DNA of 64,000 nucleotides from Selaginella moellendorffii (GCF_000143415.4 NW_003314262.1:1539960-1603959), one strand, 5' to 3'. Shown: positions 788 to 51,542, counted from the stretch's first letter. The notes: generated by a model from the letters alone, not told the origin. Numbers and translations: made by a program.

Positions 788-811
788 AAGCTCTATTTCG
801 TTAAAGTGGGA
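788..811 (+). repeat. Left TIR of copy 1 (AAGCTCTATTTCGTTAAAGTGGGA)
   Basis: Exact reverse complement of 13405-13428 and of 51515-51538. Confidence 0.97.
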
Positions 812-1403
812 TTTATTCAGTAAAATGGGACTAGGTACAAATTTTCAAGTATTTGAAAATGACGTGAAATTATATGTTTTTTGTCCAGGGGCTAGACATA
901 TCTGGGGCATGGTGACTAGCGCGGTGACTTTGTGTCCAGACTGAGTCCATCTGGTTGTATAATAAATCTCATTGTCAAGGTGAACAAGCCGAATCTGAAG
1001 CTAAAGAAGAGCGATGGCATGCGCGCACACACTATTTGTTTGTTCATTGAGCGTGTGGTGAGCTTTCCAAGATGAACGTCATTCCTATTAGCCAGACATA
1101 TAACTTAATGGTGAGAACATTTAGATATTATTCAATGTTATCTTTTTCTAACGAATCTAATTGTGAAGGTGTAGCAAGAGGCATTGCTAGTCTGGAGAAG
1201 TCATTTAACTCATTTGACCCTTAGTGTATTTTCATGAAACTAAATAACATTCATATTATTAAGGAATTTCTCTAGTACCTTTTTTTTACGACATAGAGGC
1301 TTGCATTTCTTTCAAAGGTGATTTAGTAAAAGGCCTGAGGGCACATGCCATTCTATTTCTCAGACCAGTATTAAGATATACTAGTGCAAAGGGCCACATG
1401 CCA

Positions 1404-4400
1404 TCACGCCTCCTCTGATTCAGATTCGGATTGTTCACCTTGAAATAAAATACATTAGAAACTTAGTAAAGGAATATTAAATCTCACCTTGAACCCGGGT
1501 TATGAATGCTCTTGCTACATCTCTTGCATGGTCTGGCAAGGTGATGGTGGCACTCTGCTTCCGCATCCAACCATGCACAACATTATCCACCGATATGCTC
1601 ATGCTAGGATCCCTTGGATTCAGCACCCATCTCTTTTCTAGGCAATCCTTCGTATATCCGGAACTTGGCTTGAACCACTCCACAGTTACATTGAAGGAGT
1701 TAGTTTCTGCGTCCTCCTCTGCATCAGTGATGCAGCGCCCCACCCATATCATTTGTTTTTTATTACTGGGTCTGACAAGCACGACCATTCCTTTGCAGAC
1801 CTGTACTGGATTGAATGCTGAATCCGGCTTCTTGTTCCTCGGCCCACAATAGTGATCCTCAACATCGTTATCTGTCACTGCATTTCCAGAGGACATTGTT
1901 CCGCTACTATCTGGTGCTCTGGGTTCTGGCCAAAAGGACTCTTCCAATTCTTCATATACAACCGGCCCATTTTGGATAGCAGATATAATCTTCTCCCAGT
2001 ATTCGAGCAAAGGCTTGCACCTCTTAAAATAGGATTCTCCACCAAACACCAACCCCCTCTTCCAGAAGGCAATATGCTGTCTAATCCCGGCCACTATACT
2101 TTCCTGGTCTTTGAGTCCATTCGGGTGCATCGGCCGTGGGGAACCCTGAGGAATCATAGGTTCCCCAGTTATGGGATCTCTCTTGAAGAGTTCAATGCCG
2201 TCCACTGGCAGCCACACTGTGTCCCATTCTCTCATCTTGTACCTCATCACTGGAGCACCGTCACGCATGCTGAAATGAAACTGAAGAGGCTTGGAGTGGC
2301 CAATCAGCGTTTCGGATCCGTCCCTGATGTAGCCTCTTACAAACCCCTTAAAGTCTGGAACCTCTGTCACAAGTGCAGCTTCAACAGTGCCTTTGATGCA
2401 ATTTTGGAATTCATCGTAGAGTTGTGGGAGGGTGAGGACATTGGATCGCCGGAGGGACTCTGCCAGGTGACTGAACATGGCATCGACGTCTTCATGAGTG
2501 TGCCCAACCATGAGAAAGCCAAGTGTAACCGTTTCAAATATGCCTTTGGCAACAAGCATCGCCAAGTACGCGAAGACGTACATGTTTTTGTTCTCACTGC
2601 CAGCATTGTCTGTTTGGAGCAGAAGATGGGGTGGAAGGCCACATCGGCCGCAAGAACTTCCTTGAGATTCTGCTTCGTTTGGATGAGGCTGTGCATTCAC
2701 CGGGCGACCAGCCTCGTCGGAATGGCATGAGGCCTCACGTGATAACCCTACAATCTGACGGCCAACATATTCACTGGGATGGCATGGGGCCCCACGCGAT
2801 ACTGCAAGCCTTTGCTCCTCCTCCAGCTGAACCCTGTATGGGGTTCGATCGACAAGGGCCTTATGCAAGGGTTGGCCGTTCAGCTCAGTCTGCGCACTTT
2901 GCAGAGAACTTAAGTGTTTTGCTAGGGACGCAATCATCATGTTTGCACCCCTGCCACCCCATAGAGGTACAAAGAAGTTCCCATAGTTCTGGGCACCATG
3001 CCCATGAGCGATTATGCCAAACAGAGACACAGGTAGTTGCATGGATGAAGAGATTGCCTTGGGGGCAGGATTGAGTCGAGGTAAGCACGTCTTTTTCTGG
3101 TCCATTTTGTCGTGGATGATGCAGAGGTAAGAGTCAGGTCTCTCCATGGAGAGAATCCTGTTATGATAATATGCAGTCCTGCAGCTTCTCTGCTCGATGT
3201 TGTGGTTGAGCCGCCTTCTAACCAACGTCTCTCGCTCTTGAGCGCTGCAAGAATTCTTCGACAAAGCCATTTTGATAGCAGTGCACTCGTCACACTTTGA
3301 AAAGCTGGAGTACTTTCCTATACTCACATCCCTGAACCTGTTGCTCCACAATCTACTAAATCTAGATTGGCTCAGCTTCCTGTAGCCATTACTCTGGAGT
3401 TCCCGATTCACATCTTCCAATATGGCCCCCTTGGTATACATGGAAGGGAGAACTCGTTGGGTGTCTCGTGTTCCATCTTCCAAGAGGCGGGTTTTATGTG
3501 GTTGCTGCTCGCTACATGTCTCGACAAACCTCTTGAAGATTGCCTCTCCATATACAACATGACCCCTGGTTTTGTGCGTACCGTCGTTCCCATGGACTGC
3601 CTGTTGAACCCTTTGTTCCTCGAACTCAGTTTTGATTCTGTAGAATGTGGTTTGAGGGACTCCATAAATGATTCTCCATGCCTTCATGCAGACCAAACCC
3701 CTCTGGAAGACCATGCCCCCCACCTGATGTTCTGAAGCATCAACAGATGACCGTAATGCCTCATACACAAAATTGCGAGCTGCCTTTCAGGACAATGTCT
3801 TGTATCTTGCTCTCTCCTCTTCAATAGCATCCCAATCAGCATGTTGACAGCACCTCCTCTTGCAACAAGCAACTGTCGAGACCATTCGAACCTCCATCGC
3901 CATTTTCTACCTTTTCGGTTCGTTGCTCAGATCCCTTTGGCTGCGCTATAGGAAGGTGTACTTTCTTTTCCCATGAAGAGATGTTCTGTCATCAGTTGTA
4001 GTGGTGTTTGATTGTGAATCCTTCACATTCTCAAACACTAAATGCCTCAATTTCCACCGCACAATGCTTCCAATAGTCAGACTGTTTTCTTCTGTGTCAA
4101 CAACCTCTAAAATTGCAACTCCAATATCATCCCAGCCCAATTCTTGATTAGCAACCACATCTCTTGGATTGACAACTGTGGCTAAGCCCTCAGCTACCAC
4201 CTCCCCCTCGGGGTTGTTTAGAAACACCTTTGCCTGAATCCATGTAGCACGGTTCTTAAGATCCACGGAGGGAACATGCGTCGCACTTGCGCTGTCCCCA
4301 ACATCTGCTTTCTTCTGCAGATTTTTCAAGGCAACAACAACATTTACCCCGACGACCATCTCTCCTCGTTCAATAGCGACCACATTCCCATCGAAGACAG

Positions 4401-4542
4401 TCTCTACTAATACAGCAGCATTGCCTTCCCCAAGCCTTTGACAGTGTATAACAAAGTTCCGATCCATAGACACAAGGGTCCCTTTTGCAACTCTCTTCCC
4501 ACCATTCAAAATGTAAACCTTTTCCCCAACCCTGAAGGCCAT
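1404..4542 (-). pseudogene. Sola1-like DDD/E transposase, copy 1 (two premature stops)
   Basis: ORFs 3946-4542 and 1477-3768 share a frame, broken by TAG at 3946-3948 and 3907-3909 (sense codons in copy 2). Motifs: CCKRRC, VCMKAWRIIYGV, FSKCDEC, CIIHDKMD, LQTDNAGSENKN, FLMVGHTHEDVDAMFS. A probable short last exon (GEQSESESEEA*) ends at 1404. Confidence 0.85.
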
Positions 4543-4715
4543 TCTGAAAGTGCAGAAAAGAAGTTAAGACCATACAAAAAATGATTGGAGAATGGCCTAA
4601 ATCATAACATACCAAATAGCATGAGGCCACATGCCATTATTCAAACATGCTATTGACACCCACGTGAAATTTCGCATTCACAAAATTGGCATGAGCCCTC
4701 ATGCCATTAGTGGTA

Positions 4716-4958
4716 NNNNNNNNNNNNNNNNNNNNNNNNNNNNNNNNNNNNNNNNNNNNNNNNNNNNNNNNNNNNNNNNNNNNNNNNNNNNNNNNNNNNN
4801 NNNNNNNNNNNNNNNNNNNNNNNNNNNNNNNNNNNNNNNNNNNNNNNNNNNNNNNNNNNNNNNNNNNNNNNNNNNNNNNNNNNNNNNNNNNNNNNNNNNN
4901 NNNNNNNNNNNNNNNNNNNNNNNNNNNNNNNNNNNNNNNNNNNNNNNNNNNNNNNNNN
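4716..4958. other. Assembly gap (N run)
   Basis: Run of Ns starting at the centre of a long palindrome that is resolved in copy 2. Confidence 0.99.
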
Positions 4959-5167
4959 TATGCTAGTGATGCCATCTTGATATAAACACAGCTGCAGGCA
5001 ATTAAAAACATACATGACAATACGCTAGCCATGAAATCTCAAGGGCCCAAGATGGCATGTGGCCTCATGCCATTTCTAAATGTGGTCCTAAACCATTCCA
5101 TGTTGAACATACCAGGAAGCACAAGTGCCGAATATCAAGAGGAAGCGGTAGCCACACCAAAGACAGG

Positions 5168-5292
5168 GCCGCTCGCAACCCCGCAACTACTCGTAGCGCC
5201 GCTCGCAACACCGCAACTGCTCGTAGCGCCGCTCGCACAAACTGCCACTCGCATAAACTGCCGCTCGCAATGGCGCTCGCAATGCCGCAACT
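5168..5292 (+). repeat. GC-rich ~30-bp tandem repeat (GCCGCTCGCAACMCCGCAACTRCTCGTAGC x2 plus degenerate units) upstream of the transposase
   Basis: Read directly. Also present in copy 2 at ~46845-46970. Confidence 0.85.
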
Positions 5293-6096
5293 GCTTGTAG
5301 ACGCATAAACCACAGCTCACAACGCCGCTTACACAAGCAGCGCTCACTGCGCTCAGCGGAACCAAGAACACGGCGCACAAAAATGATAGACCTAGGAATG
5401 AGTTCGAGAATTCAAAAATAACACACGCTTGAACGTCACATCAAATCCTCTGACAAACCAGATCTTATGATTCCTCTGACAAATTTCAAACTGAGTAGCT
5501 TCTAGACTTTGCTGTCGGAGGTTGAACTTTGTCACATCATGTCCTTGCCTCGATCCAGCTGTGCCATGTCAGTGATTCGAACTTTGCCATGCCATGTCAG
5601 CGATCCGCGCCAAGATTATTCGCCGTGTAAAGGAATAATTATGCTGTGTGTGTACATCCATTTATGGCAATATAAGGCCACATGCTATTCAAAGAATAAT
5701 GCTAGTCGAGCATCTTTTGGTGCATTTTTGGGTTCAAAATTGCATGAGCCCACACGCTATAAAGTTTACCTGTACCAAAAATAGAAACAGCTTTATTTAC
5801 TTGGGAATTTATATGGCTGAGGCATTTTTAAACTTACAAACACATGCCCTACTTACATTCCTTTGGTTGCTTAAAATTCAAAAATATTATAAACCTTTCT
5901 TTTTGCATTTTCAATGTTTTCAATTATGGTTTTTGATTTTCGCAGGACCAGCCTAGTAATCTATTTGCATCCCGTCATGTTTATAGCTAGCTTTTGTTTG
6001 TCCCCTTCGCTAGCCTGAGATACATCTGCTCGGCATCTGCCTCTTACAGCATTTGCCCAGAAAGGGCATCTTTCTTCACGCAGCATTTGCCACATG

Positions 6097-6128
6097 TTTA
6101 GGGTTAGGGTTTAGGGTTTAGGGTTTAG
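6097..6128 (+). repeat. Interstitial plant telomere-type/telobox repeat (TTTAGGG)n inside the transposon
   Basis: TTTAGGG TTAGGG TTTAGGG TTTAGGG TTTAG. Copy 2 has (CCCTAAA)n at ~46007-46040. Confidence 0.9.
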
Positions 6129-7019
6129 CAATTCAGTAGCTTGATAAACATGCAAATACAGAACTTGATGCAAAATCCTTTGATATGTCACAATGCCCCT
6201 AGGACCATAAACACATTTCAATAGAGAGGGTCCTTTCATTTCATAACTCCTTACGTAGATCTTGGTGAAACCAGAGTTAGTGAAGTTGGTTTCTTGTGAT
6301 CCCACATCTGATTGTGATGTCCCTTTGCAGTGTCGATGGAAAGGTCAATGCACACCAAACTGTAGAATCTTGGAGCAAAATAACGGTCGGATCTATGGCA
6401 AATGCCCCTGAAACATTGTAAGGCTCGTGTGGTCTCATGTGGTGTCCGATCGAGATGCTTCTTTGCAGGGTCATCAAGAAGGACATTGTATACCATTCTG
6501 TAAAATTTAGTTGCGATCTAACGGTTGGATCTCCAGGAAACTCAAAACAATCTCGCGCGTGTCAGAATATTCTAGGAATATACTCCTATGTGCTCCTGAA
6601 AATGGCATGCGGCCCCACGCCATTCAAGAGATAACGCCAGATGACGCCGAGCATTTTTTGGTGCATTTTTTGGGATCAAAATTGCATGAGCCCACATGCT
6701 TGAACGTCATCCTCTGACAATTTATTTAGCTGAACATCTGGCATTTTTGGAAATACAAGATGCTTTGGAATATCCAATCATGCATGGTATAAATATAGCG
6801 AGGGTATTAAATGATATCCCAATCATGATCTTTCTTTTGGATTTCGCGTGCATGCAGTCCGAGGAATGATGACGTTGCGGATTTCTTTTGGATTTCACGC
6901 ATGCGCGTGCCGATCCAGAAATTAATGGTGGCGCCCAAGTCCGAGAAATGATGACGTGGCGGGATTACCAACCGTCGTGACATTTCGCGCGTGTGAGGTT
7001 AGGTTTTGCATTTTGGTTC

Positions 7020-7260
7020 GTACTCGCGCTCGCACACTCGCGCTCGCATCGCGCTCCCACTCGCGCTCCCACTTCTCTACAGGTTTCTCGTGTGCATCGG
7101 CGTCCACTCGCGCTTGCATCACACTCGCGCTCGCATCGCGCTCGTGTGCATCGGCATCCACTTCAAGACACACCCAGTTTGTAACTTCGCCGCCAACTCC
7201 GCCGCCCACTCCGCCACCCACACGCAGCCCACTTGGCGTCCCGAGAGATTTCAGCGCCAC
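7020..7260 (+). promoter_or_regulatory. CpG-rich low-complexity (CGCGCT/CGCACT) tract, probable promoter/5' region of the cargo gene
   Basis: Dense CG repeats just upstream of the cargo gene exons. Expanded in copy 2 (44620-44800). Function inferred from position only. Confidence 0.4.
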
Positions 7261-7605
7261 TCTCCAACTATAAGTGGCAGAGTAGCCTTGCTGCTACGAT
7301 CCGCTGCACACACAGTGCACATTCGCCAGCGAGTCCAGTTGTCACGCCTCCATTCGGCTTCAAATGGTAAGTCTTTTAGGCCAAGTAGAAAATGGCATGA
7401 GGCCACATGCCATTCAGTAGCAACATTGGCATGCACCGATTGGGCTCTCGAGTGCAGTCCGGTTACAGATGGCGTGTAGCCTCACGCCATCTTAGGATGC
7501 AGCCTCAAGACATCTGATGCAGTGGTGAATGGCGTGTGGCCTCACGTTATTTCCAGCTACTAGCTTTTCATCTGTCAGCTCTAATTGTTGTGCATTTCTG
7601 AACAG

Positions 7606-10600
7606 GCGAGGAATTGCGTTCTTCTTCCAGCCACTGTCAATGTGGATGCAGAGAAGGGGGAGGAGCTCACCAGTTGGACTTTCGGGATGGAAGGCGAGGA
7701 TCTGAGGCTGTACAACACAGATGGTGGGAGAAAAGAATGCATGGGGATCCTCATCCAAGTGACAGACACTCCATGCAGTTCCATGCAAGAATATGGACTG
7801 GCACTTGTGGTAGAGACAGCGTCTGCCTTCAAGATCCACCTTGCACATCCTAGCGGCTTCCCGGAGGGGGGCAGCGGCTATGAGGAATTCCTAGAGGGAG
7901 CTAGGGAGAGGTTGTCCAGGAGGCCCACAATTTCAAAGACGCTGCGGGTCTATGAAGATCACATGGAATCCACGGACCTCACCTACGGCGATGTTCAAAA
8001 ACTATATTCCAACATTGAGCCGTTGAGAGTGACTCCAGTTCGCGAAGCAAAGGGGAAGGGGGTCGATCTGGAAACTACCTCGAAGCAGAAAAGGGTGGTC
8101 AAGCTCAAGCCAACGTCCGACTCTTCTGCTCCAAAAAAGAAGCTACTCAGTGATGCCATTACCTCGGGTTCGAACACTACACCCACCAAAAAGAAGAGCC
8201 GCAAAGAGCAGAAAGAGCAAGAAGAGGCAGCAAAAATCGTCGCAGATAATAGTACTTGTTACTATTCCAACAAAGTATATACAATCGACGTGAGCCGTAT
8301 CGACATCCAAAGCAAATACAACCACAGGCTAGTATCTGATGAGTGGGTGGAGAAATTGAAGCAGAAGATGCTGGCAAGTCCAGTAACACCCGACATCGCA
8401 GACGTGATCCCCTACTACCAAAAAATGAAGGGCGAGATGAGGTTTCCAGACTTGATCAATAGGAAGGTGTTGGACGATCAGAACATCCGGTTCTATGCCG
8501 TCTCCGGGCAGCATTCTAGCTTGGCGATGCAAGAGATAGTTGTGGATATTATGGTGGGCGAGGAGGTGAAGAAAGTCTTCAAGACAAGAGTTGTCCGCCT
8601 GATAAAAGGCAACTCGCCCCTCCGATCTATCATATACATCTCCCACGCGCAGAATGTCAAGCAAGAAACGTGCTACAAATCGGGTCTGCACGAGACATTG
8701 GCACGAACACGAAAGCTCTGGGTTCAACTGAAGAAGCCACAAAAACCAGGACAAGGACGTGCACTAGCAACTAGCGCCTGGCAGGTAAGCCTCGTTGTAT
8801 GTGGCATAGCATGTGGCCTCACGCCATTTCCATTGAAGGAATTCTCGAGTCTTCTCTCGAAAACACTGGGGGTCAATGACACACTCAGCATCCATAACAT
8901 TCTACTCACGACAAAAGTTGTTTTTGACAAATGGGTAGATGTGCTGAGGAGGTACCATGACGGGGAGTTGCCAAACTCAATGGGTGTGGAGGACGGCCGG
9001 AAGCCCAATGATTTGAAGCTCAACGCCTTGCGTTTCTCGCGGTCTCTAGACGACGACGACCTTCTGACAGTGGCTAATGCTCTTCTACGTGGTGAGGTTG
9101 TCTTCAACAAGACCAAAATGACTCCCGGCCATATTGTGACATACGAGGACTTGTGCACGACTCTGAGAGCTCGTGCGCTATTGAAGGATTGGATCTTCGA
9201 GCAAGTGGCCGTGGAGAGGGTGAGCATCGACACCACGCAAGAGATGATGGAAGCGCTGGAGTTGTCAAATGAAGACATCGACGAGTACGTGAAGGGGGCC
9301 CCCAAGTTCATCGATCTGCTGCGGGATGCCACGAAAAGTAAAGCTGAGAAGTTGGATCAGTATCCAAATTTCATTAAGATTGATGTCGACCGCCGGCTTC
9401 AGAAACAGCTCAACCCCGCAGCAGAGGCCTATCGAGAACCTTACCGGGTATACTTGAATTCGGATGAGGATCAAAGGTGGAGGAGCATCGTTTCCCGCGG
9501 AGATGAGCAGGTCAAGAACATCTTTTGTGTGATGGACTTCACAAACGAGGAGATCACTCATGCAGACGAAGTCAGCTCCATCATTGACTTAATGGTGGGA
9601 CTTGCGGAGGTGGAATCTTCAGTCCACTATATGATCTACGACTCCGAATCCTATCACAAGTTCTGGAAGGCCTTGAACGAGGTGAAGGCTCGGTTGAAAG
9701 GCAAGGAGATGCGGGAGATCCATGGGATAATGGCTAAGAAGAAGATACCGACAAATGTCCGCATCTTCACACTCGCCCTTGTTATTGGTCCTGCAGCAGA
9801 GTGGGACTGGAGTGACTTCCCAGCTTTGTTCGACAAGGCCAATCGAATTGATCTGAGGGAGGTCAATTTACCCGTGCCTGAGGAACTGAAGACGGCTATG
9901 GAGCTTTCGAATCCAAAGAAAGCTCCAGGTGCAGCATGGGAAATGCTCAGCTGGGTCTTCAACGCAATAGCGGGTGGGTCACCTGCTTCCGACTCCAAGG
10001 GCAAATGCGTTGTCGAGTACAACTGCGGCGGACTATTCTTTCGAGCCGCACTACTCAAGGGTGTCCCGTGTGTTGCGGTGACAAACTCCATTGAAGAGGT
10101 GACTTCAATGGAGCATATAATTACAGTTGCCAAAGAAAAACAGTATCTTCTCTGCGAACCTGGTGAGTACGCACTTTAAGTTTAAATGTTATCTCACAAG
10201 CTCTGTATGCAGGAGCGTGGCCACCCCCAGATGCTGAAACGGCGTTAACAGCTACTGTTGAAGATACCCATGTTGGGCCGAGCTCACAACCTGCACAAGG
10301 TAAGGTCATGTGAGGCCTCACGCCATTTTGATTATAGATCGTTGTGAATATTCAGACACGAGGACTGAAAAGCGCACTGGTGGCGCATCGAAGAAGGACA
10401 AACAGAAAAGCAATAGGAAAAAAGGAGGTACAAATTATATTTGCAATGGCGTGTGGTCTCATGCCATTCCTTGCAGGAGAAACTTCTTCAAAGGCAAAAC
10501 AGGCAAGCACCAGCCAAACTCAAACTGATAGTGGTCATAAAAAGTGAAAGCACGTTGGACAGTCGTCGAGATCAGAGGCATTTGATTCGAAAAGGAAGAA

Positions 10601-12986
10601 GGGCAACGAAAAGATGATAGGTAATGCCTCGCGGTTATGGCGTGTGTGCTCATGCCATTCATTGCAGATCAAGGGCTGAGTGAAAGCAGGCAGTCACCAC
10701 CTCATGACTCAGATTCCTATGGTGGACTCCCCTTCCCCAATCTCAATGGAGAGGTACAATGGATGAGGGAAGCTTTTCAAGGTAGGGCCACGTTTTTCTC
10801 ATCTCGTCGTCTTCGAAGGGTGCAAGAACGTGCAGAAACCATGTTAAGACAGTCGGGTGAGGATACGGTCCTAGGTCACGCACTAAAACAGGCTATGGAT
10901 GTCTTGTATTTTGAGATGGAGACTCGGCCAGATGATTTTCCCAAGATGGTCCTGGAAGAACAAGCCATCCAGCCTGAGCAGCCTATGGAAGAAATGCAGG
11001 AGGGGGATAAGGAGCCAGAGAAAGATAATGAGCAGGAAGAGCAGAAGGACGAAGAGGAGGACAAAGAAGAGGAGGACGAAGAAGAGGAGGACGAAGAGGA
11101 CTTGGATGGTCCTCACAATGGTGACGATCACAATAACGACGACGACGATGATGACGACGATGGCCAGCCTGAGGTGGCCAAAGAGCGGCGGAGGAAGGTC
11201 ATACAAGATAAACCATCAGGTAAATAATAATACATCCATTCCTAACCTTTTACCATTTTTAACATTGTCCATGTAGGTCACAGAGCAAATGGTAAGTAGA
11301 GATTATTCAGTTGAATTTACAAACTCTAGCCTTTAGTGTCGAGGAAGGATAGTGCCAAGCAAGGGTCGAAACGTATGTCCAATCCTTCAGAATCAGCAGT
11401 GCGCTCAAGTGATATCGGTCCTAGTTCCTCAATAGCAGTTGATGGTAAATACAGTATAGTCGATTCAATGTGCTAATGAGTTTGTTTTTAGTAGCACGGG
11501 AGGATACCATCTCAATCGAAGGGAGATATTTGGACATGCATATGGATCCGCCAGTGGACTCTACTTGGCTGCAAGAGTCATCAGAGCTGGTGGAGGCTAC
11601 TATCCATATCAACGCCAAGCAAGCTGACCACGCTCCACTTGATGCTGCCCATACCACTGAGTCAATCTTGTCCATGTATCCAACTGACGGTGACCAGACG
11701 CCATTGGACCCACATGAGGCCGCCCCAGCCGCCGAGCCGGTCGTATCCTCATTTCCAACGGACTCAACGTGTGCCCAATCGTCTAACTACGCGCCGTTGG
11801 AACCTCCCTACACCGCCCCTGCTGCCTGTTCGGTCATGTCCACTTTGCCAACGGAGGCACCAGCTGAAATGGCGTGTGATCACACGCCATTGGAACCACC
11901 CCATGCCACTGTTGAGCCAGTTGTACCAGAGTCTACAGCTGAAATGGCATGTGCCCACACGCCATCGGATGTGATTGACCCCACATTGCAGAGGAGAGTA
12001 TTTCCGCCCTTCACGTTTCCTCGACCAAAACCCTCTCAACGACCATCGGGAGCAACATTCGCTAATATTGTAGATGGTAAAATTGACTTGTACCATTTTT
12101 TATGCTGACGCATTTCATTTCAGAGTCACGGCGAAGGTACTGTATCGTTTTTGATCTGAACGGTGTCCTTTTCTCCCATGAGCGTGGCTCGTCCTCGAAT
12201 GTCATTGCACCCTCCAAAGCCTGCGGTCGCAAGTTGGTCAAAAGAGACAGATTCACATTAATCACACGGGAGAAACTGCGGGATCTAATAATGACCATGC
12301 GACACTTAAAACAGAGGGCCGGGTTCAATTTGCAATTGGGAGTTTGGACATCCATGATGCGCCACAATGCATTAACGTTGCTACAGATGATGCACGATCA
12401 GACGCGAGTAATATTACCATTTGACTTTCTCCTAACGCAGGAGGATTGCTTGACTATGGTCCATGTGAGGGGTAGCAAGCCCATCTTCGTCAAGCCAGAG
12501 GCTGTAGTGATGAACCGGACTGCTAGCTCAAGTGAAATCCTCATCATCGATGACTCGCCGATTAAAACTGCAGCGAACACGCACACATATGCAGTGCACC
12601 CCATCTGTTGCAGTATGGAAACTAGGGAGAAGAAACCGTATGTTCTGGGGGACCTTGCAAAACGGCTTGGAGCGATGGTGATAGAGAACCGGCCAGTCCA
12701 GGAGGTGGCTGCAGAAATCAACCAAATGGCAGATGGAATGGTATATCAGAAGCCATTTGATCGGACAGACACCAGTCATCATTTATGGCATGTATATTGT
12801 CTAGCCAAGCACTATCCGCATCTCCATAATCTGCTCAACCGGATGGGTTCTTCGACCACTGAACATGAGCGTGGACGTATTAGAGAAGAGATGGCATTAC
12901 TATTGGGTTTAAATCCTGATAGTGTGGAGAGTGATGAAATTCCAAGATTATTGTATAGGCGTTGGAGGCAAAAAATAACAGTCTGA
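7606..12986 (+). CDS. Transposon cargo gene, >=10 exons, ~1,640 aa: ParB/Srx-like domain + degenerate beta-class DNA MTase fold + acidic/Pro-rich region + FCP1/NIF HAD phosphatase-like domain (one premature TGA in this copy)
   Basis: Exons 7606-8784, 8839-10162, 10213-10299, 10356-10427, 10477-10620, 10668-11219, 11277-11291, 11337-11444, 11492-12076 and 12124-12986 are joined by 45-57 nt GT-AG introns and stay in frame. TGA at 10545-10547 is CGA in copy 2. The true start and 5' exons (~7360-7600) are unresolved. Confidence 0.75.
12124..12986 (+). CDS. FCP1/NIF-family HAD phosphatase-like domain (last exon of the cargo gene)
   Basis: IVFDLNGVL (motif I, DxN variant), LGVWTS (motif II), QEDC, KPIFVK (motif III), ILIIDDSPIK..N..AVHP (motif IV), in the expected order. 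Confidence 0.85.
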
Positions 12987-13404
12987 GATGGCATGTATTT
13001 ATTTAAAAATGTAACTTATTATGGCATGGGGTTCCATGCCATTGTATTAATATTAAAAGACAATTCTTTGAGAGGATTTGCATTATACTAGAAGTGTTAC
13101 AGCATGTTATTGGAAGTCTACGAAGTTGTTTTATTAATAATGGGAAAGTAAAGATTGAATGGGGACTTGGGCTCCACCTAGACTCGGAGCAACTGAGCCA
13201 ATATTAAAAGGATGGAAAGAAATTGGACGACGATGACAAGGAGAAGAGAGAGGTGAAGCAGTGGCAGGGGGAGGAGAAGTGATTGAGTAGACATTTCCTT
13301 GTTTAAAATAAAATGGCATGTGCCTCAATGCAGTTGAATTTTGTTATATTTATATACTATATAAAGGTTTGGAAACCTTATTTTACAAGTGGGATAATGA
13401 CAAT

Positions 13405-13428
13405 TCCCACTTTAACGAAATAGAGCTT
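13405..13428 (-). repeat. Right TIR of copy 1
   Basis: TCCCACTTTAACGAAATAGAGCTT followed by TSD AATT. Confidence 0.97.
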
Positions 13429-38405: not shown

Positions 38406-38847
38406 AAGTTCTATTTCGTTAAAGTGGGAATTGTCATTATCCCACTTGTAAAATAAGGTTTCCAAACCTTTATATAGTATATAAATATAACAAAATTCAA
38501 CTACATTGAGGCACATGCCATTTTATTTTAAACAAGGAAATGTCTACTCAATCACTTCTCCTCCCCCTGCCACTGCTTCACCTCTCTCTTCTACTTGTCA
38601 TTGTTGTCCAATTTCTTTCCATCCTTTTAATATTGGCTCAGTTGCTCTGAGTCTAGGTGGAGCCCAAGTCCCCATTCAATCTTTACTTTCCCCTTATTAA
38701 TAAAACAACTTCGTAGACTTCCAATAACATGCTGTAACACTTCTAGTATAATGCAAATCCTCTCAAAGAATTGTCTTTTAATATTAATACAATGGCATGG
38801 AACCCCATGCCATAATAAGTTACATTTTTAAATAAATACATGCCATC

Positions 38848-41800
38848 TCAGACTGTTATTTTTTGCCTCCAACGCCTATACAATAATCTTGGAATTTCAT
38901 CACTCTCCACACTATCAGGATTTAAACCCAATAGTAATGCCATCTCTTCTCTAATACGTCCACGCTCATGTTCAGTGGTCGAAGAACCCATCCGGTTGAG
39001 CAGATTATGGAGATGCGGATAGTGCTTGGCTAGACAATATACATGCCATAAATGATGACTGGTGTCTGTCCGATCAAATGGCTTCTGATATACCGTTCCA
39101 TCTGCCATTTGGTTGATTTCTGCAGCCACCTCCTGGACTGGCCGGTTCTCTATCACCATCGCTCCAAGCCGTTTTGCAAGGTCCCCTAGAACATACGGTT
39201 TCTTCTCACTAGTTTCCATACTACAAGAGATGGGGTGCACTGCATATGTGTGCATGTTCGCTGCAGTTTTAATCGGCGAGTCATCAATGATGAGGATTTC
39301 ACTTGACCTAGCAGTCCGGTTCATCACTACAGCCTCTGGCTTGACGAAGATGGGCTTGCTACCCCTCACATGGACCATAGTCAAGCAATCCTCCTGCGTT
39401 AGGAGAAAGTCAAATGGTAATATTACTCGCGTCTGATTGTGCATCATCTGTAGCAACATTAATGCATTGTGGCGCATTATGGATGTCCAAACTCCCAATT
39501 GCAAATTGAACCCGGCCCCCTGTTTTAAGTGTCGCATGGTCATTATTAGATCCCGTAGTTTCTCCCGTGTGATTAATGTGAATTTGTCTCTTTTGACCAA
39601 CTTGCGACCGCAGGCTTTGGAGGGTGCAGTGACATTCGAGGACGAGCCACGCTCATGGGAGAAAAGGACACCGTTTAGATCAAAAATGATACAGTACCTT
39701 CGCCGTGACTCTGAAATGAAATGCGTCAGCATAAAAAATGGTACAAGTCAATTTTACCATCTACAATATTAGCGAATGGTGCTCCCGATGGTCGTTGAGA
39801 GGGTTTTGGTCGAGGAAACGTGAAGGGCGGAAATACTCTCCTCTGCAATGTGGGGTCAATCGCATCCGATGGTGTGTGGGCACATGCCATTTCAGCTGTA
39901 GACTCTGGTACAACTGGCTCAACAGTGGCATGGGGTGGTTCCGATGGCGTGTGATCACACGCCATTTCAGCTGGTGCCTCCGTTGGCAAAGTGGACATGA
40001 CCGAACAGGCAGCAGAGGCAGTGTAGGGAGGTTCCAACGGCGCGTAGTCAGACGATTGGGCACACGTTGAGTCCGTTGGAAATGAGGATACGACCGGCTC
40101 GGCGGCTGGGGTGGCCTCATGCGGGTCCAATGGCGCCTGGTCACCGTCAGTTGGATACGTGGACAAGATTGACTCAGTGGTATGGGCAGCATCAAGTGGA
40201 GCGTGGTCAGCTTGCTTGGCGTTGATATGGATAGTAGCCTCCACCAGCTCTGATGACTCTTGCAGGCAAGTAGAGCCCACTGGCGAATCCATATACATGT
40301 GCAAATATCTCCCTTCGATTGAGATGGTATCCTCCCTACTGGCTACTAAAAACAAACTCATTAGCACATTGAATCGACTATACTGTATTTACCATCAACT
40401 GCTATTGAGGAACTAAGACCGATATCACTTGGGCGCACTGCTGATTCTGAAGGATTGGACATACGTTTCGACCCTTGCTTGGCACTATCCTTCCTTGACA
40501 CTAAAGGCTAGAGTTTGTATCTTAATTCAACTGAATAATCTCTACTTACCATTTGCTTTGCAACCTACATGGACAATGTTAGAAATGGTAAAAGGTTAGG
40601 AATGGATGTATTATTATTTACCTGATGGTTTGTCTTGTATGACCTTCCTCCGCTGCTCTTTGGCCACCTCAGGCTGGCCATCATCGTCATCATCATTGTC
40701 GTCGTTATTGTGATCGTCACCATTGTGAGGACCATCCAAGTCCTCTTCGTCCTCCTCTTCTTCGTCCTCCTCTTCTTTGTCCTCCTCTTCGTCCTTCTGC
40801 TCTTCCTGCTCATTATCTTTCTCTGGCTCCTCATCCCCCTCCTGCATTTCTTCCATAGGCTGCTCAGGCTGGATGGCTTGTTCTTCCAGGACCATCTTGG
40901 GAAAATCATCTGGCCGAGTCTCCATCTCAAAATACAAGACATCCATAGCCTGTTTTAGTGCGTGACCTAGGACCGTATCCTCACCCGACTGTCTTAACAT
41001 GGTTTTTGCACGTTCTTGCACCCTTCGAAGACGATGAGATGAGAAAAACATGGCCCTGACTTGAAAAGCATCCCTCATCCATTGTACCTCTCCATTGAGA
41101 TTGGGGAAGGGGAGTCCGCCATAGGAATCTGAGTCAGGAGGTGGTGACCGCAAGGCATTACCTATCATCTTTTCGTTGCCCTTCTTCCTTTTCGAATCAA
41201 ACGCCTCTGATCCCGACGACTGTCCAACGTGCTTTCGCTTTTTATGACCACTAACAGTTTGAGCTTGGCTAGTGCTTGCCTGTTTTGCCTTTGAAGAAGT
41301 GTCTCCTGCAAGGAATGGCATGAGACCACACGCCATTGCAAATATAATTTGTACCTCCTATTTTCCTATTGCTTATCTGTTTGTCCTTCTTCGACGCGCC
41401 ACCAGTGCGCTTTTCAGTCCTCGTGTCTGAATATTCACAACGATCTATAATCAAAATGGCGTGAGGCCTCACATGACCTTATCTTGTGCAGGTTGTGAGC
41501 TCGGCCTAACATGGGTATCTTCAACAGTAGCTGTTAACGCCGTTTCAGCATCTGGGGGTGGCCATGCTCCTGCATACAGAGCTTGTGAGATAACATTTAA
41601 ACTTAAAGTGCGTACTCACCAGGTTCGCAGAGAAGATACTGTTTTTCTTTGGCAACTGTAATTATATGCTTCATTGAAGTCACCTCTTCAATGGAGTTTG
41701 TCACCGCAACACACGGGACACCCTTGAGTAGTGCGGCTCGAAAGAATAGTCCGTCGCAGTTGTACTCGACAACGCATTTGCCCTTGGAGTCGGAAGCAGG

Positions 41801-44167
41801 TGCTATTGCATTGAAGACCCAGCTGAGCATTTCCCATGCTGCACCTGGAGCTTTCTCTGGATTCGAAAGCTCCATAGCCGTCTTCAGTTCCTCAGGCACG
41901 GGTAAATTGACCTCCCTCAGATCAATTCGATCGGCCTTGTCGAACGAAGCTGGGAAGTCACTCCAGTCCCACTCTACTGCAGGACCAATAACAAAGGCGA
42001 GTGTGAAGATGCAGACATTCGTCGGTATCTTCTTCTTAGCCATTATCCCATGGATCTCCTACATCTCCTTACCTTTCAACCGAGCCTTCACCTCGTTCAA
42101 GGCCTTCCAGAACTTGTGATAGGATTCAGAGTCGTAGATCATATAGTGGACTGAAGATTCCACCTCCGCAAGTCCCACCATTAAGTCAATGATGGAGCTG
42201 ACTTCGTCTGCATGAGTGATCTCCTCGTTTGTGAAATCCATCACACAAAAGATGTTCTTGACCTGCTCATCTCCGCGGGAAACGATGCTCCTCCACCTTT
42301 GATCCTCATCCGAATTCACGTATACCCGGTAAGGTTCTCGATAGGCCTCTACTGCGGGGTCGAGCTGTTTCTGAAGCCGGCGGTCGACATCCCTCTTAAT
42401 GAAATTTGGATACTGATCCAACTTCTCAGCTTTACTTTTCGTGGCATCCCGCAGCAGATCGATGAACTTGGGGGCCCCCTTCACGTAGTCGTCGATGTCT
42501 TCATTTGACAACTCCAGCTCTTCCATCATCTCTTGCGTGGTGTCAATGCTCACTCTCTCCACGGCCACTTGCTCGAAGATCCAATCCTTCAATAGCGCAC
42601 GAGCTCTCAGAGTCGTGCACAAGTCCTCGTATGTCACAATATGGCCGGGAGTCATTTTGGTCTTGTTGAAGATTACCTCACCACGTAGAAGAGCATTAGC
42701 CACTGTCAGAAGGTCATCGTCGTCTAGAGACCACGAGAAATGCAAGGCGTTGAGCTTCAAATCATTGGGCTTCCGACCGTCCTCCACACCCATTGAGTTT
42801 AGCAACTCCCCGTCATGGTACCTTCTCAGCACATCTACCCATTTGTCAAAAATAGCTTTTGTCGCGAGTAGAATGTTATGGATGCTGAGTGTGTCATTGA
42901 CCCCCAGTGTTTTCGAGAGAAGACTCGAGAATTCCTGCAGTGGAAATGGCGTGAGGCCACATGCTATGCCACATGCAACGAGGCTTACCTGCCAAGCGCT
43001 AGTTGCTAGTGCACGTCCTTGTCTTGGTTTTTGTGGCTTCTTCAGTTGAACCCAGAGCTTCCGTGTTCGTGCCAATGTCTTGTGCAGACCCGATTTGTAG
43101 CACGTTTCTTGCTTGACATTCTGCGCGTGGGAGATGAATATGATAGATCGGAGGGGCGAGTTGCCTTTTATCAGGCGGACAACTCTTGTCTTGAAGACTT
43201 TCTTCACCTCCTCGCCCACCATAATATCCAGAACTATCTCTTGCATCGCCAAGCTAGAATGCTGCCCGGAGACGGCATAGAACCGGATGTTCTGATCGTC
43301 CAACACCTTCCTATTGATCAAGTCTAGAAACCTCGTCTCGCCCTTCATTGTTCGGTAGTAGGGGATCATGTCTGCAATGTCGGGTGTTACTGGACTTGCC
43401 AGCATCTTCTGCTTCAATTTCTCCACCCACTCATCAGATACTAGCCTGTGGTTGTATTTGCTTTGGATGTTGATACGGCTCACGTCGATTGTATATACTT
43501 TGTTGGAATAGTAACAAGTACTATTATCTGCGACGATTTTTGCTGCCTCTTCTTGCTCTTTCTGCTCTTTGCGGCTCTTCCTTTTGGTGAGTGTAGTGTT
43601 CAAACCCGAGGCAATGGCATCACCGAGTAGCTTCTTTTTTGGAACAAGAGAGTCGGACGTCGGCTTGAGCTTGACCACCCTTTTCTGCTTCGGGGTAGTT
43701 TCCAGATCGACCCCCTTCCCCTTCACTTCGCGAACTGGAGGCACTTTCAATGACTCAATGTTGGAATATAGTTTTTGAACATCGCCGTAGGTGAGGTCCG
43801 TAGATTCCATGTGATCTTCATAGACCCGCAGCGTCTTTGAAATTGTGGGCCTCTTGGACAACCTCTCCCTAGCTCCCTCTAGGAATTCCTCATAGCCGCT
43901 GCCCCCCTCCAGGAAGCCGCTAGGATGTGCAAGGTGGATCTTGAAGGCGGATGCTGTCTCTACCACAAGTGCCAGTCCATATTCTTGCATGGAACTGCAT
44001 GAAGTGTCTGTCACTTGGATGAGGATCCCCATGCATTCTTTTCTCCCACCATCTGTGTTGTACAGCCTCAGATCCTCGCCTTCCATCCCGAAAGTCCAAC
44101 TGGTGAGCTCCTCCCCCTTCTCTGCATCCACATTGACAGTGGCTGGAAGAAGAACGCAATTCCTCGC
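38848..44167 (-). pseudogene. Cargo gene, copy 2 (ParB-like + MTase-like + FCP1-like), premature TAG at 42059-42061
   Basis: Same exons as copy 1 (ORFs 42059-44188, 41603-42043, 40614-41336, 39726-40367, 38848-39732). A 59-bp deletion near 41150 removes one acceptor site. Confidence 0.75.
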
Positions 44168-47100
44168 CTGTTCAGAAATGCACAACAATTAGAGCTGACA
44201 GATGAAAAGCTAGCAGCTGGAAATAACGTGAGGCCACACGCCATTCACCACTGCATCAGATGTCTTGAGGCTGCATCCTAAGATGGCATGAGGCTACATG
44301 CCATCTGTAACCGGACTGCACTCGAGAGCCCAATCGGTGCATGCCAATGTTGCTACTGAATGGCATATGGCCTCATGCCATTTTCTACTTGGCCTAAAAG
44401 ACTTACCATTTGAAGCCGAATGGAGGCCGTGACAATCGAGGCCGGACTCGCTGGCAAATGTGCACTATGTGTGCAGCGGATCGTAGCAGCAAGGCTACTC
44501 TGCCACTTACAGTTGGAGAGTGGCGCTGAAATCTCCCGGGACGCCAAGTGGGCTGCGTGTGGGTGGCGGAGTGGGCAGCGGAGTTGGCGGCGAAGTTACA
44601 AATTGGGTGTGTCTTGAAGTGGACGCCGATGCACACGAGCGCGATGCGAGCGCGAGTGTGATGCAAGCGCGAGTGGACGCCGATGCACACGAGAAACCTG
44701 TAGAGAAGTGAGCGTGATCGCGAGTGGGAGCGCGATGCGAGCGGGAGCGCGAGTGTGATGCGAGCGCGAGCGCGAGTGTGCGAGCGCGAGTACGAAGCAA
44801 AATGCAAAACCTAACCTCACACGCGCGAAATGTCACAACGGTTGGTAATCCTGCCACATCATCATTCCTCAGACTTGGGCGCCACCATTAATTTCTGGAT
44901 TGCCGCGCGCATGCAAGCACGCAAAATCCAAAAGAAATCCGCAACGTCATCATTCCTCGGACTGCATGCACGCGAAATCCAAAAGAAAGATCATGATTGG
45001 GATATCATTTAATACCCTTGCTATATTTATACCATGCATGATTGGATATTCCAAAGCATCTTGTATTTCCAAAAATGGCAGATGTTCAGCTAAATAAAGA
45101 AATTCTATCTGTTTCTATTTTTCTCTCAAATCAATATTATAGTGTGTGGGCTCATGCAATTTTGAACCAAAGAAACCCAAAAAACGTTGGACCCAAAATA
45201 TTTTGAAAAAACCCAAAAAACCCTAAACATTTTAAACCCAAAAATCCAAGCATCCTGTGGCGTTATTCCTTGAATGGAGTGTGGGCGCATACTATTTTTA
45301 GGGCCAAATGCTGAATGGAGAAAAATTCCCTTTCAGTGCAAATGCTGCAAGAGGTAGATGCCGAGCACAAAGGACTGTAACTACCTCACATGACACAGAT
45401 AAACTTTTCTCTATTTGGCAAAGATAAACTTTATAACGTGTGGGCTCATGCAATTTTGAACCCAAAAAATGCACCAAAAAATTCTCGGCGTCATCTGGCG
45501 TTATCTCTTGAATGGCGTGGGGCCGCATGCCATTTTCAAGGGCACATAGGAGTATATTCCTAGGATATTCTGACACATGCGAGATTTTTTTGAGTTTTCT
45601 GGAGATCCAACCGTTAGATCGCAACTAAATTTTACAGAATGGTATACAATGTCTTTCTTGATGACCCTGCAAAGAAGCATCTCGATCGGAAACCACATTA
45701 GACCACACGAGCCTTACAATGTTTCAGGGGCATTTGCTATAGATCCGACCGTTATTTTGCTCCAAGATTTTACAGTTTGGTGTGCATTGACCTTTCCATC
45801 GACACTGCAAAGGGACATCACAATCAGATGCGGGATCACAAGAAACTAACTTCACTAACTCTGGTTTCACCAAGATCTATGTAAGGAGTTATGAAATGAA
45901 AGAACCCTCTCTATTGAAATGTGTTTATGGTCCTAGGGGCATTGTGACATATCAAAGGATTTTGCATCAAGTTCTGTATTTGCATGTTTATCAAGCTACT
46001 GAATTGCTAAACCCTAAACCCTAAACCCTAAACCCTAAACATGTGGCAAATGCTGTGTGAAGAAAGATGCCTTTCTGGGCAAATGCTGTAAGAGGCAGAT
46101 ACCGAGCAGATGTATCTCAGGCTAGCGAAGGGGACAAACGAAAGCTAGCTATAAACATGACGGGATGCAAATAGATTACTAGGCTGGTCCTGCGAAAATC
46201 AAAAACCATAATTGAAAACAATGAAAATGCAAAAAGAAAGGTTTATAATATTTTTGAATTTTAAGCAACCAAAGGAATGTAAGTAGGGCATGTGTTTGTA
46301 AGTTTAAAAATGCCTCAACCACTTAAATTCCCAAGTAAATAAAGCTGTTTCTATTTTTGGTACAGGTAAACTTTATAGTGTGTGGGCTCATGCAATTTTG
46401 AACCCAAAAATGCACCAAAAAATGCTCGACTAGCATTATTCTTTGAATGGCGTGTGGCCTTATATTGCCATAAATGGACGTACACACACAGCATAATTAT
46501 TCCTTTACACGGCGAATAATCTTGGCGCGGATCGCTGACATGGCATGGCAAAGTTCGAATCACTAACATGGCACAGCTGGATCGAGGCAAGGACATGATG
46601 TGACAAAGTTCAACCTCCGACAGCAAAGTCTAGAAGCTACTCAGTTTGAAATTTGTCAGAGGAATCATAAGATCTGGTTTGTTAGAGGATTTGATGTGAC
46701 GTTCAAGCGTGTGTTATTTTTGAATTCTCGAACTCATTCCTAGGTCTATCATTTTTGTGCGCCGTGTTCTTGGTTCCGCTGAGCGCAGTGAGCGCTGCTT
46801 GTGTAAGCGGCGTTGTGGGCTGTGGTTTATGCGTCTACGAGCGGTTGCGGCATTGCGAGCGCCATTGCGAGCGGCAGTTTATGCGAGTGGCAGTTTGTGC
46901 GAGCGGCGCTACGAGCAGTTGCGGTGTTGCAAGCGGCACTACGAGTAGTTGCGGTGTTGCGAGCGGCACTGTCTTTGGTGTGGCTACCGCTTCCTCTTGA
47001 TATTCGGCACTTGTGCTTCCTGGTATGTTCACCATGGAATGGTTTAGGACCACATTTAGAAATGGCATGAGGCCTCATGCCATTAGTGGTACCACTAATA

Positions 47101-47271
47101 GCATGAGGGTTCATGCCAATTTTGTGAATGCGAAATTTCACGTGGGTGTCAATAGCATGTTTGAATAATGGCATGTGGCCTCATGCTATTGAGGTTGTTT
47201 GGTATGTTATGATTTAGGCCATTCTCCAATCATTTTTTGTATGGTCTTAACTTCTTTTCTGCACTTTCAGA

Positions 47272-50200: not shown

Positions 50201-50413
50201 GGGATCCCAGCATGAGCATATCGGTGGATAATGTTGTGCATGGTTGGATGCGGAAGCAGAGTGCCACCATCACCTTGCTAGACCATGCAAGAGATGCAGC
50301 AAGAGCATTCATAACCCGGGTTCAAGGTGAGATTCATTAATATTCCTTTACTAAGTTTCTAATGTATTTTATTTCAAGGTGAACAATCCGAATCTGAATC
50401 AGAGGAGGCGTGA
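47272..50413 (+). pseudogene. Sola1-like transposase, copy 2 (two premature stops)
   Basis: Single frame 47272-50340 with TGA at 48580-48582 and 50017-50019 (sense codons in copy 1). Probable intron 50327-50378 and last exon 50379-50413. Confidence 0.85.
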
Positions 50414-51542
50414 TGGCATGTGGCCTGAGATGATGTGACATATGCATTTACCAATCACACGTGCATAAATCTAATAATATGGCGTGTGGCCCATATTAAT
50501 GGCACATAAACCCATATTGTGGGCTTACGTGCTTTATGTACCATCATTCCCTTGCAGCGTGTGTGTTGGTTTCCTTTTATAACACAACGAACTCCATATT
50601 TTAGGGTGAAGAGCGTTCTCATGGCAAGCACAAAATCTGTAAGTGAGGCAGAAAAGGAGACGGAGAAGGAGATAGGTGAAGATGTAGAATATATAAGTCT
50701 TCCAAACTCCTCGTACTATACTCCAGGTGATCATTTTTCTGAACAAACGGCAATATTAACAACTATCGAGAACGCCCCAGTAACGTCAGAGACAACAATC
50801 CAAAGCAAAACAACTGACCCGGAGAAGAATGATAGTACCGCTGAGAGTACCAAAAAGGAGGTGTCCACTAGCGCTTAGGCTTATAATGGTGTGTGCCTTC
50901 ATGCCATTTACTTGATCACCAAATACCTTTTTCCCTTTGCACTAGTATATCTTAATACCGGTCTGAGAAATAGAATGGCATGTGCCCTGAGGCCTTTTAC
51001 TAAATCACCTTTGAAAGAAATGCAAGCCTCTATGTCGTAAAAAAAAGGTACTAGAGAAATTCCTTAATAATATGAATGTTATTTAGTTTCATGAAAATAC
51101 ACTAAGGGTCAAATGAGTTAAATGACTTCTCCAGACTAGCAATGCCTCTTGCTACACCTTCACAATTAGATTCGTTAGAAAAAGATAACATTGAATAATA
51201 TCTAAATGTTCTCACCATTAAGTTATATGTCTGGCTAATAGGAATGACGTTCATCTTGGAAAGCTCACCACACGCTCAATGAACAAACAAATAGTGTGTG
51301 CGCGCATGCCATCGCTCTTCTTTAGCTTCAGATTCGGCTTGTTCACCTTGACAATGAGATTTATTATACAACCAGATGGACTCAGTCTGGACATAAAGTC
51401 ACCGCGCTAGTCACCATGCCCCAGATATGTCTAGCCTCTGGACAAAAAACATATAATTTCACGTCATTTTCAAATACTTGAAAATTTGTACCTAGTCCCA
51501 TTTTACTGAATAAATCCCACTTTAACGAAATAGAGCTTAAAG

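Follow-up and report, generated by a model that had tools for sequence, protein, structure and literature searches.

The question raised by a 64,000-nt stretch of Selaginella moellendorffii DNA (GCF_000143415.4 NW_003314262.1:1539960-1603959, the whole of which is called the window here) is whether a row of separate open reading frames (ORFs) in a Sola1-like DNA transposon represents several genes or the exons of a single one. These ORFs, the cargo of the element, lie head-to-head with the transposase gene, on opposite strands. An earlier interpretation, made from the DNA alone (the sequence-only reading), had linked them by nine small introns into one gene encoding a fusion of ParB-like, methyltransferase-like and phosphatase domains. 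The window harbours two copies of the element, and these were compared with each other and with public contigs. One spliced, fused cargo gene was found to be well supported by the sequence evidence set out below, and intact copies very probably splice the nine introns into one frame, yielding one protein of about 1,640 residues. On the same evidence the gene model is real, while the cargo gene of copy 1, in which it was recognized, is itself a pseudogene.

Nine introns in one reading frame

The positions and phases of the nine GT-AG introns (45-57 nt) were confirmed on the sequence, as were the phase of the last eight (all phase 1, intron 1 being phase 0) and the lengths of the seven inner exons, each divisible by 3 and including a micro-exon (Table 1). 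The model counts 1,643 codons, assuming a 5' exon with an ATG at 7364; translation might instead begin at the first ATG within exon 1. As had been claimed, the nine introns restore one frame through the ORFs, although in copy 1 this frame is interrupted by a TGA at 10545. The introns have the properties of U2-type spliceosomal introns, namely GT-AG ends, consensus sites, a branch point and restoration of the frame.

Several lines of evidence converge on these introns. A frame-blind splice scorer, using approximate plant site frequencies, ranked the eight linker introns above every other non-overlapping call in 10100-12200, and seven of the eight linker donors rank as the top 7 among the 116 GTs of that region. 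Over 7300-13000 the scorer, with a threshold of 5.5 chosen after the 10100-12200 result was known, called the nine introns plus one upstream (7367-7417) and no others. Controls yielded no introns on the reverse strand and none in the 3,066-nt transposase frame. Read in the frame of the model, the inner exons contain one stop in 514 codons, versus 12 in 521 and 41 in 514 in the other frames; at most one stop was found in none of 2,000 shuffles (mean 24.5) and in none of 3,000 Markov simulations. Furthermore, a yUnAy branch motif is located at -15 to -19 in eight of the nine introns, versus 12 of 378 exonic AGs. The claim that the arrangement is unlikely by chance is borne out by scorer, stops and branch points; the run of eight phase-1 introns turned out less extreme than it seemed (see below).

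Intron 1 is stop-free and in frame, and could encode 18 residues. These residues are absent from the annotated homologs of Selaginella and Riccia: a RefSeq Selaginella protein reads WQ-EF at the intron 1 site, as in the spliced window, and two Riccia models are likewise continuous. Several ORF-called homologs stop or diverge at this site. Indirect support for the fused gene may come from a Streptophyta Atlas cluster of 1,673 amino acids (aa).

Table 1 Features of the cargo gene and of the transposon copies in the window
Feature	Position	Strand	Remarks
5' end, uncertain	7364..7605	+	Candidate ATG and donor 7364-7367; acceptor 7605
Exon 1	7606..8784	+	N-terminal domain of unknown fold, lysine-rich linker, ParB/Srx-fold domain from ~8260 (SGQHS)
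Intron 1	8785..8838	+	54 nt, phase 0; contains palindrome
Exon 2	8839..10162	+	Helical domain aligning with ParB DNA-binding domain, then degenerate methyltransferase-like alpha/beta domain without DPPY
Intron 2	10163..10212	+	50 nt, phase 1; retention gives stop TAA 10177-10179
Linker exon	10213..10299	+	87 nt
Intron 3	10300..10355	+	56 nt, phase 1; degenerate palindrome adjoins donor
Linker exon	10356..10427	+	72 nt
Intron 4	10428..10476	+	49 nt, phase 1; predicted branch point supplied by palindrome
Linker exon	10477..10620	+	144 nt; TGA 10545-10547
Intron 5	10621..10667	+	47 nt, phase 1; predicted branch point supplied by palindrome
Linker exon	10668..11219	+	552 nt; long Asp/Glu tract
Intron 6	11220..11276	+	57 nt, phase 1
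Micro-exon	11277..11291	+	15 nt
Intron 7	11292..11336	+	45 nt, phase 1
Linker exon	11337..11444	+	108 nt
Intron 8	11445..11491	+	47 nt, phase 1
Linker exon	11492..12076	+	585 nt, proline/acid-rich; two palindromes
Intron 9	12077..12123	+	47 nt, phase 1; branch motif overlaps ATG 12102
Last exon	12124..12986	+	FCP1/SCP-like (NIF) HAD phosphatase domain; motif I DLNGV, motif IV IIDDSP
Sola1-like DNA transposon, copy 1	788..13428 (12,641 bp)		24-bp terminal inverted repeats, target duplication AATT
DDE-type transposase, copy 1	1477..4542	-	Pfam DUF7869, E 9.5e-43
N gap within copy 1	near 4716-4958		
Inverted second copy	38406..51538	-	96-99% identical to copy 1; target duplication AAAG

Transcripts and homologs

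The spliced-RNA check that had been proposed for 10162-12124 gave no support: no joint across 10163-12123 was found in the 7 sequencing runs (of 23 listed) that were compared with the window, coverage being near nil. For this reason both the fusion and any exon skipping are predictions. A single joint, from 7533 to 7606, was present, in a contig of one run that is probably RNA. The contig stems from a related copy and lends support to the acceptor at 7605, with the donor at 7534, but not to the start codon. In the raw-read RNA runs X9 and X10 there were almost no gene-body reads (~12% of each run was read).

Upstream of the cargo gene, 40 nt (7267-7306) are matched by many RNA reads, among which 168 in X9 are loose-ended on both sides. 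These reads derive from another, highly expressed locus, and the 40 nt may be a captured or donated fragment. The region 7367-7605 contains three palindromes and several possible small introns.

Besides the missing joint, a number of observations weigh against a fused gene. A contig of run X1, guessed to be RNA, spans intron 9 unspliced, and a contig of run X13 runs into intron 6; these contigs may be DNA or unspliced RNA. The weakest link of the model is formed by exons 3-5, for which, taken alone, the probability of no stop is 0.004-0.02 and that of at most one stop 0.03-0.10. The best homolog, from S. moellendorffii itself, ends directly after the methylase-like part. With the N-terminal half as query the top Atlas cluster, from Streptophyta (0.97), is only 813 aa long, the 1,673-aa cluster following at 0.93; this pair would be consistent with both a short and a long form. 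A fused homolog was not recovered in searches, weak ones, for longer proteins. Finally, purifying selection was not detected between the two copies, 36 of the 129 changed codons being synonymous and 40 expected, and judged by these counts the copies diverged neutrally.

The short homologs bear on an alternative in which two products are made: a ParB-methylase-like protein ending at 10179, by retention of intron 2 or premature polyadenylation, and the product of a linker-phosphatase gene transcribed on its own. Homologs some 450-810 aa long that end after the methylase-like part, an Ectocarpus protein that is without a phosphatase in the accessible part of its description (PMC12477816) and the failure to see the intron 2 joint in the 7 runs all point in this direction. 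However, intron 2 has the second-highest splice score of the region, with a branch point at -17, and exons 3-5 come close to being open solely in the frame set by exon 2 (one stop, versus 3 and 8 in the other frames). Moreover, the stretch 10100-11220 contains none of the four A-rich poly(A)-like hexamers looked for, and the ATGs at 10637 and 12102, from which separate ORFs could be read, fall within predicted introns. We consider two separate products unlikely, and one fused gene remains the preferred reading.

A Selaginella moellendorffii protein of 451 aa (P0001/P0017-P0019), near-identical on two scaffolds, has the helical and methylase-like parts without the ParB fold and is possibly a domesticated or truncated relative. 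Word-index homolog searches, which are weak for relatives at 20-30% identity, found nothing. Locus scans of viral, metagenome and genome contigs returned no true relative; one metagenome locus (L077) was rejected as a false match, being a bacterial polysaccharide cluster. A tblastn search of phages with a homolog as query gave no match.

Palindromes and the phase of the introns

A 22-bp imperfect palindrome (at most 2 mismatches) occurs 18 times in copy 1 (1014..13042), 15 times in copy 2 and nowhere else in the window. This total of 33, versus 0.01 expected, is to be read with the fact that the consensus was derived from the same copies. In copy 1 six palindromes lie in the 5' intron region of the cargo gene and in introns 1, 4 and 5. 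Those at 8806-8827, 10446-10467 and 10637-10658 contribute their right arm as the branch point predicted for introns 1, 4 and 5, respectively, which lies 16-18 nt before the acceptor; for introns 4 and 5 a hairpin of the palindrome that covers this point is also predicted (z -2.5 and -1.7). Palindrome pairs are also present within coding sequence, at 2722-2800, where the transposase has an insert-like stretch, and at 11869-11965 in the 585-nt linker exon; the motif is therefore tolerated in frame.

The similarity of introns 1, 4 and 5 extends further than their ends (z 7.6-9.4), whereas introns 6-9 showed no significant homology to one another (best p 0.048); duplication therefore has support for the palindrome-bearing introns only. 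With equal phases, a run of eight phase-1 introns would arise with a probability of 0.00015, a value that rises to about 0.003 when the local G bias is taken into account, 200 of the 419 linker positions preceded by G being in phase 1.

The symmetric exons had been proposed to allow in-frame skipping. Arithmetically this holds, and skipping of the 144-nt exon would bypass the TGA of copy 1. It could then be argued that the fusion is real and that its symmetric exons were selected for skipping, tuning the length of the linker or removing modules. Seven consecutive exons with lengths in multiples of three, a run of phase-1 introns that is improbable even with the local bias and the hairpins over the branch points of introns 4 and 5 agree with such a programme. 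No skipped form was seen in the runs compared, however, and the shared intron modules indicate duplication. Furthermore, every linker intron, if retained, runs into a stop within 33 codons, and frame-keeping is therefore needed with or without skipping. Selection for skipping is improbable in our view, and linker growth can also explain the symmetry. Growth of the linker by frame-safe steps, and not a regulated skipping programme, is the most likely origin of the all-phase-1 exons. The pattern may have arisen from a G-biased phase-1 context combined with reuse of a palindrome-plus-acceptor module, and where a disordered linker precedes a domain that is required, additions would survive only if they kept the frame.

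Decay of the two copies

In copy 1 the in-frame TGA at 10545-10547 is codon 912 of the model and lies in the 144-nt exon. Because of this stop the product of copy 1 would be ~911 residues long, and short of skipping the 144-nt exon this copy cannot produce the full protein. Copy 2 and a contig of run X3 both read CGA at 10545, making the TGA private to copy 1. Copy 2 has lesions of its own in the cargo gene: a stop at codon 686, loss of the intron 3 donor and a 59-nt deletion that removes the acceptor of intron 5. The X3 contig (5,260 nt) retains the introns, and its kind of sequencing is not on record. In 10000-12300 it shows no added stop and no change of any GT or AG, and 26 of its 33 differences are shared with copy 2. 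Since this contig reads C at 10545 and adds no stop, an open form exists in the family. Conservation of splice sites among copies, named earlier as a check on the model, is complete in the X3 contig over this range but not in copy 2.

Transitions between the two copies are enriched at CG (57 of 498 sites) over CHH (38 of 1,817), a pattern as expected of methylated, silenced copies. Another contig of run X3, of low depth, aligns with 38 nt of the phosphatase exon (12230-12267) at less than 90% identity, which suggests a diverged second family in the same species.

Domains of the predicted protein

A representative homolog search gave 16 matches at E <=0.001, among which one (P0004) was dropped as a chance match to a repeat protein. 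The remaining 15 were aligned together with two cluster members, and the resulting 18-row alignment was used for structure modelling. Folding of the single sequence gave a predicted local distance difference test score (pLDDT) of 32 and was unusable, whereas the alignment-based model reached a pLDDT of mostly 79-94 over residues 1-130. In a fold search with this model the top 14 rows were all ParB, Noc, PadC or KorB (Z 8.6-11.5). Caulobacter ParB matched with Z 11.0 over 97 residues (root mean square deviation, rmsd, 2.3), and Myxococcus ParB with Z 11.5 over model residues 5-301 (rmsd 12.9); some alignments take in the helical domain as far as residue 303, their rmsd being high. PadC was found in a wide fold search (Z 9.4) and Noc in another (E 7.5e-4). 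A ParB-like N-terminal fold is supported by these models.

ParB clamps acting as cytidine triphosphatases (CTPases) carry the arginine motif GxxRxxA (GxxR). The cargo protein has SGQHS instead of this GxxR arginine, which counts against a ParB-like clamp. Within SGQHS, all 12 aligned rows share G and H, and at least 90% of them keep Q and S.

The methyltransferase identity of the next domain is weakly supported by sequence comparison. Aligned with a profile of 32 beta-class methylases, it matches the motif-I region only, with E between 0.024 and 0.4. The best hhalign E was 0.024 with a homolog-led profile and 0.15 with one led by the window, and 150 of 200 shuffles scored at least as well as the domain of the window itself; these values tell against a methylase assignment. 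The structure model is of low confidence over residues 485-582. The catalytic motif of beta-class amino-methyltransferases (PF01555) is (D/N/S)PP(Y/F). At the DPPY position the window reads DFTN and the homologs DLRR, DSAN, DATT and DFAR, only the aspartate being kept, and motif I reads VEYNCGG. A methylase match was absent from Pfam, PHROG and NCBIfam searches. No methyltransferase was listed in fold searches of the PDB, in which the domain was not folded alone, and a phage DNA methylase stood at rank 43 in a viral search. Phage N6_N4_Mtase/ParB clusters were the best among the Pfam-bearing Atlas matches (0.77-0.79), below the lead threshold of 0.9.

A linker of about 520 residues (net charge -46, 19% hydrophobic) precedes the last exon, which matches Pfam NIF (PF03031) with 26.7 bits, versus a gathering score of 21.8, over profile positions 1-126 of 160. 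The canonical motif I of FCP1/SCP phosphatases is DxDx(T/V). In the DLNGV of the cargo protein the first aspartate is kept and the second is asparagine, while the DD of motif IV is intact; such a DxN motif suggests slow turnover or holding of a phospho-substrate rather than normal catalysis. The nearest Atlas clusters of this domain are mostly giant-virus proteins (0.95), which is no demonstration of gene transfer. Sequence searches of solved structures returned nothing relevant. The fusion of ParB, methyltransferase and phosphatase domains that had been predicted is supported in part: the sequence speaks for one spliced gene, the fold models for the ParB-like domain and the NIF match for the phosphatase; the methyltransferase signal is faint, and the RNA joint was not seen in the runs compared.

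A proposed mode of action

The element ends, introns, phases, stop, palindromes, ParB-like fold and NIF match are directly established, unlike function, for which the following is proposed. Overall, the locus probably represents a Sola1-like accessory gene encoding, in intact copies, a fused protein of ~1,640 residues that binds the palindromes of its own element and tethers a phosphatase-like domain there. By analogy with ParB-parS, the ParB fold and helical domain would recognise the 22-bp palindromes, with the methylase-like domain as a non-catalytic DNA-binding or scaffold part, a step for which the balance of evidence is slightly favourable. The long, acidic and disordered linker might bring the FCP1-like domain within reach of RNA polymerase II (Pol II), chromatin proteins or a different phosphoprotein at the element; in this way the element would adjust its own transcription, a part of the proposal that is put forward tentatively. 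The direction of such an effect could be self-limiting or anti-silencing, both being compatible with the proposal, all functional steps of which are inferred.

A more elaborate scheme is quite unlikely. In it a sequence-specific ParB clamp would tether a phosphatase or trap for the phosphorylated C-terminal domain (CTD) of Pol II, and occupancy of the palindromes at the branch points would steer co-transcriptional splicing between a short, ParB-only and a long, phosphatase-bearing form, resulting in self-regulating Pol II control. An active N6-adenine/N4-cytosine DNA methyltransferase marking the element, as proposed for Ectocarpus Sola1-1, is very unlikely: the sub-threshold phage clusters and a motif-I-like strand aligning to beta-class methylases in the expected order speak for it, but the DPPY position is degenerate both here and in the homologs, motif I reads VEYNCGG, and the domain databases gave no methylase match.

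If the fusion is true, a CTD-phosphatase-like domain would be added to the effectors of ParB-fused accessory proteins, and its target would be the transcription machinery, not DNA bases. What ORF annotation keeps as separate genes is merged by the model into one testable protein with candidate binding sites, and a compact, palindrome-guided tether could serve locus-specific control in plants.

The transposon and its surroundings

Structural hallmarks of Sola1 elements are present in both copies, namely 24-bp terminal inverted repeats (TIRs) and a 4-bp target duplication. The transposase carries three acidic motifs, a putative further Sola1 mark. In copy 1 it has three premature stops (codons 199, 212 and 252), and on this sequence copy 1 is a decayed element. 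An AWWT target is termed a Sola1 hallmark in PMC3845634; AATT of copy 1 fits this preference and AAAG/CTTT of copy 2 deviates, so that one of the two copies agrees. The 4-bp duplication and the AATT site are consistent with a Sola1 assignment. A Physcomitrella Sola1 appears in PMC9033089.

The transposase N-terminus (3949-4563) has a weak Transposase_23 match (E 0.00046, under the cut-off). Between the two genes, inside the element, lies a short telomere-like plant run (TTTAGGG) at 6097-6128. Decayed Ty3/gypsy retrotransposons surround the copies (22702-25678, 35420-38418, 51382-52041 and 56465-61173), two of them with chromodomains, and one Ty3/gypsy element (35420-52041) appears to be split by copy 2.

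Comparison with known systems

Among the closest systems by description is Sola1-1_Ec32 of Ectocarpus, in which a 1,104-aa ParB-like and methyltransferase gene lies opposite the transposase, its product being proposed to bind and modify its own element (PMC12477816). Both are giant Sola1 or Sola1-like elements with a 4-bp target duplication and an opposite-strand accessory gene for ParB-like and N4/N6 methyltransferase-like domains. Sola1-1_Ec32, however, measures 21.5 kb with a 282-bp TIR, and the word phosphatase is absent from the main text describing it; the Selaginella element measures 12.6 kb with a 24-bp TIR and has a degenerate methylase, an acidic linker and the predicted NIF fusion. 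Since ParB-methylase cargo without a fused phosphatase has been published before, the present finding is of limited surprise. New are the predicted phosphatase fusion through an acidic linker and the palindromes doubling as intron branch points. A ParB-FCP1 or ParB-phosphatase fusion was not found among the papers listed for the literature searched, Repbase Reports and most subscription journals being outside its coverage; the parts seen of PMC4738411 and bioRxiv 10.64898/2026.05.21.726589 have no bearing on the fusion.

Another transposon accessory protein with an N-terminal ParB-like domain and an enzyme domain is Plavaka PAG3 of Bostrychia, where ParB is fused to a 2-oxoglutarate (2OG) oxygenase beside inverted-repeat arrays that are proposed binding sites (bioRxiv 10.1101/2025.02.11.637652). 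It differs in its EnSpm/Plavaka host, in its 2OG oxygenase effector and in its repeats, which adjoin the gene and are not within introns; phosphatase is not mentioned in the main text available for PAG3. VANC of Arabidopsis VANDAL elements binds motifs in its own introns and relieves silencing (PMC5735166). VANC is likewise a protein encoded by a transposable element with short motifs in non-coding parts of that element, whose variable regions and exon-intron layouts are altered by the formation of repeats. In contrast, VANDALs are Mutator-like elements, no ParB, methylase or phosphatase domains are claimed for VANC in the text seen, and function is experimental there and inferred here.

In the model, the N-terminal fold and helical domain align with bacterial ParB, Noc and KorB, and the candidate sites are palindromic as well. 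Identity is 9-16%, however, and SGQHS replaces GxxR. The relation to FCP1/SCP phosphatases consists in the NIF match above the gathering score, and the Arabidopsis BAH-PHD-CPL2 complex, reported to be linked to repression (bioRxiv 10.1101/2020.10.15.341198), is a precedent for a chromatin-tethered CPL2; the cargo domain differs in having DxN instead of DxDx(T/V), in its giant-virus-like nearest clusters and in being encoded by a transposon. ParB-fused accessory proteins recur in giant DNA transposons of algae and plants, the effector differing each time.

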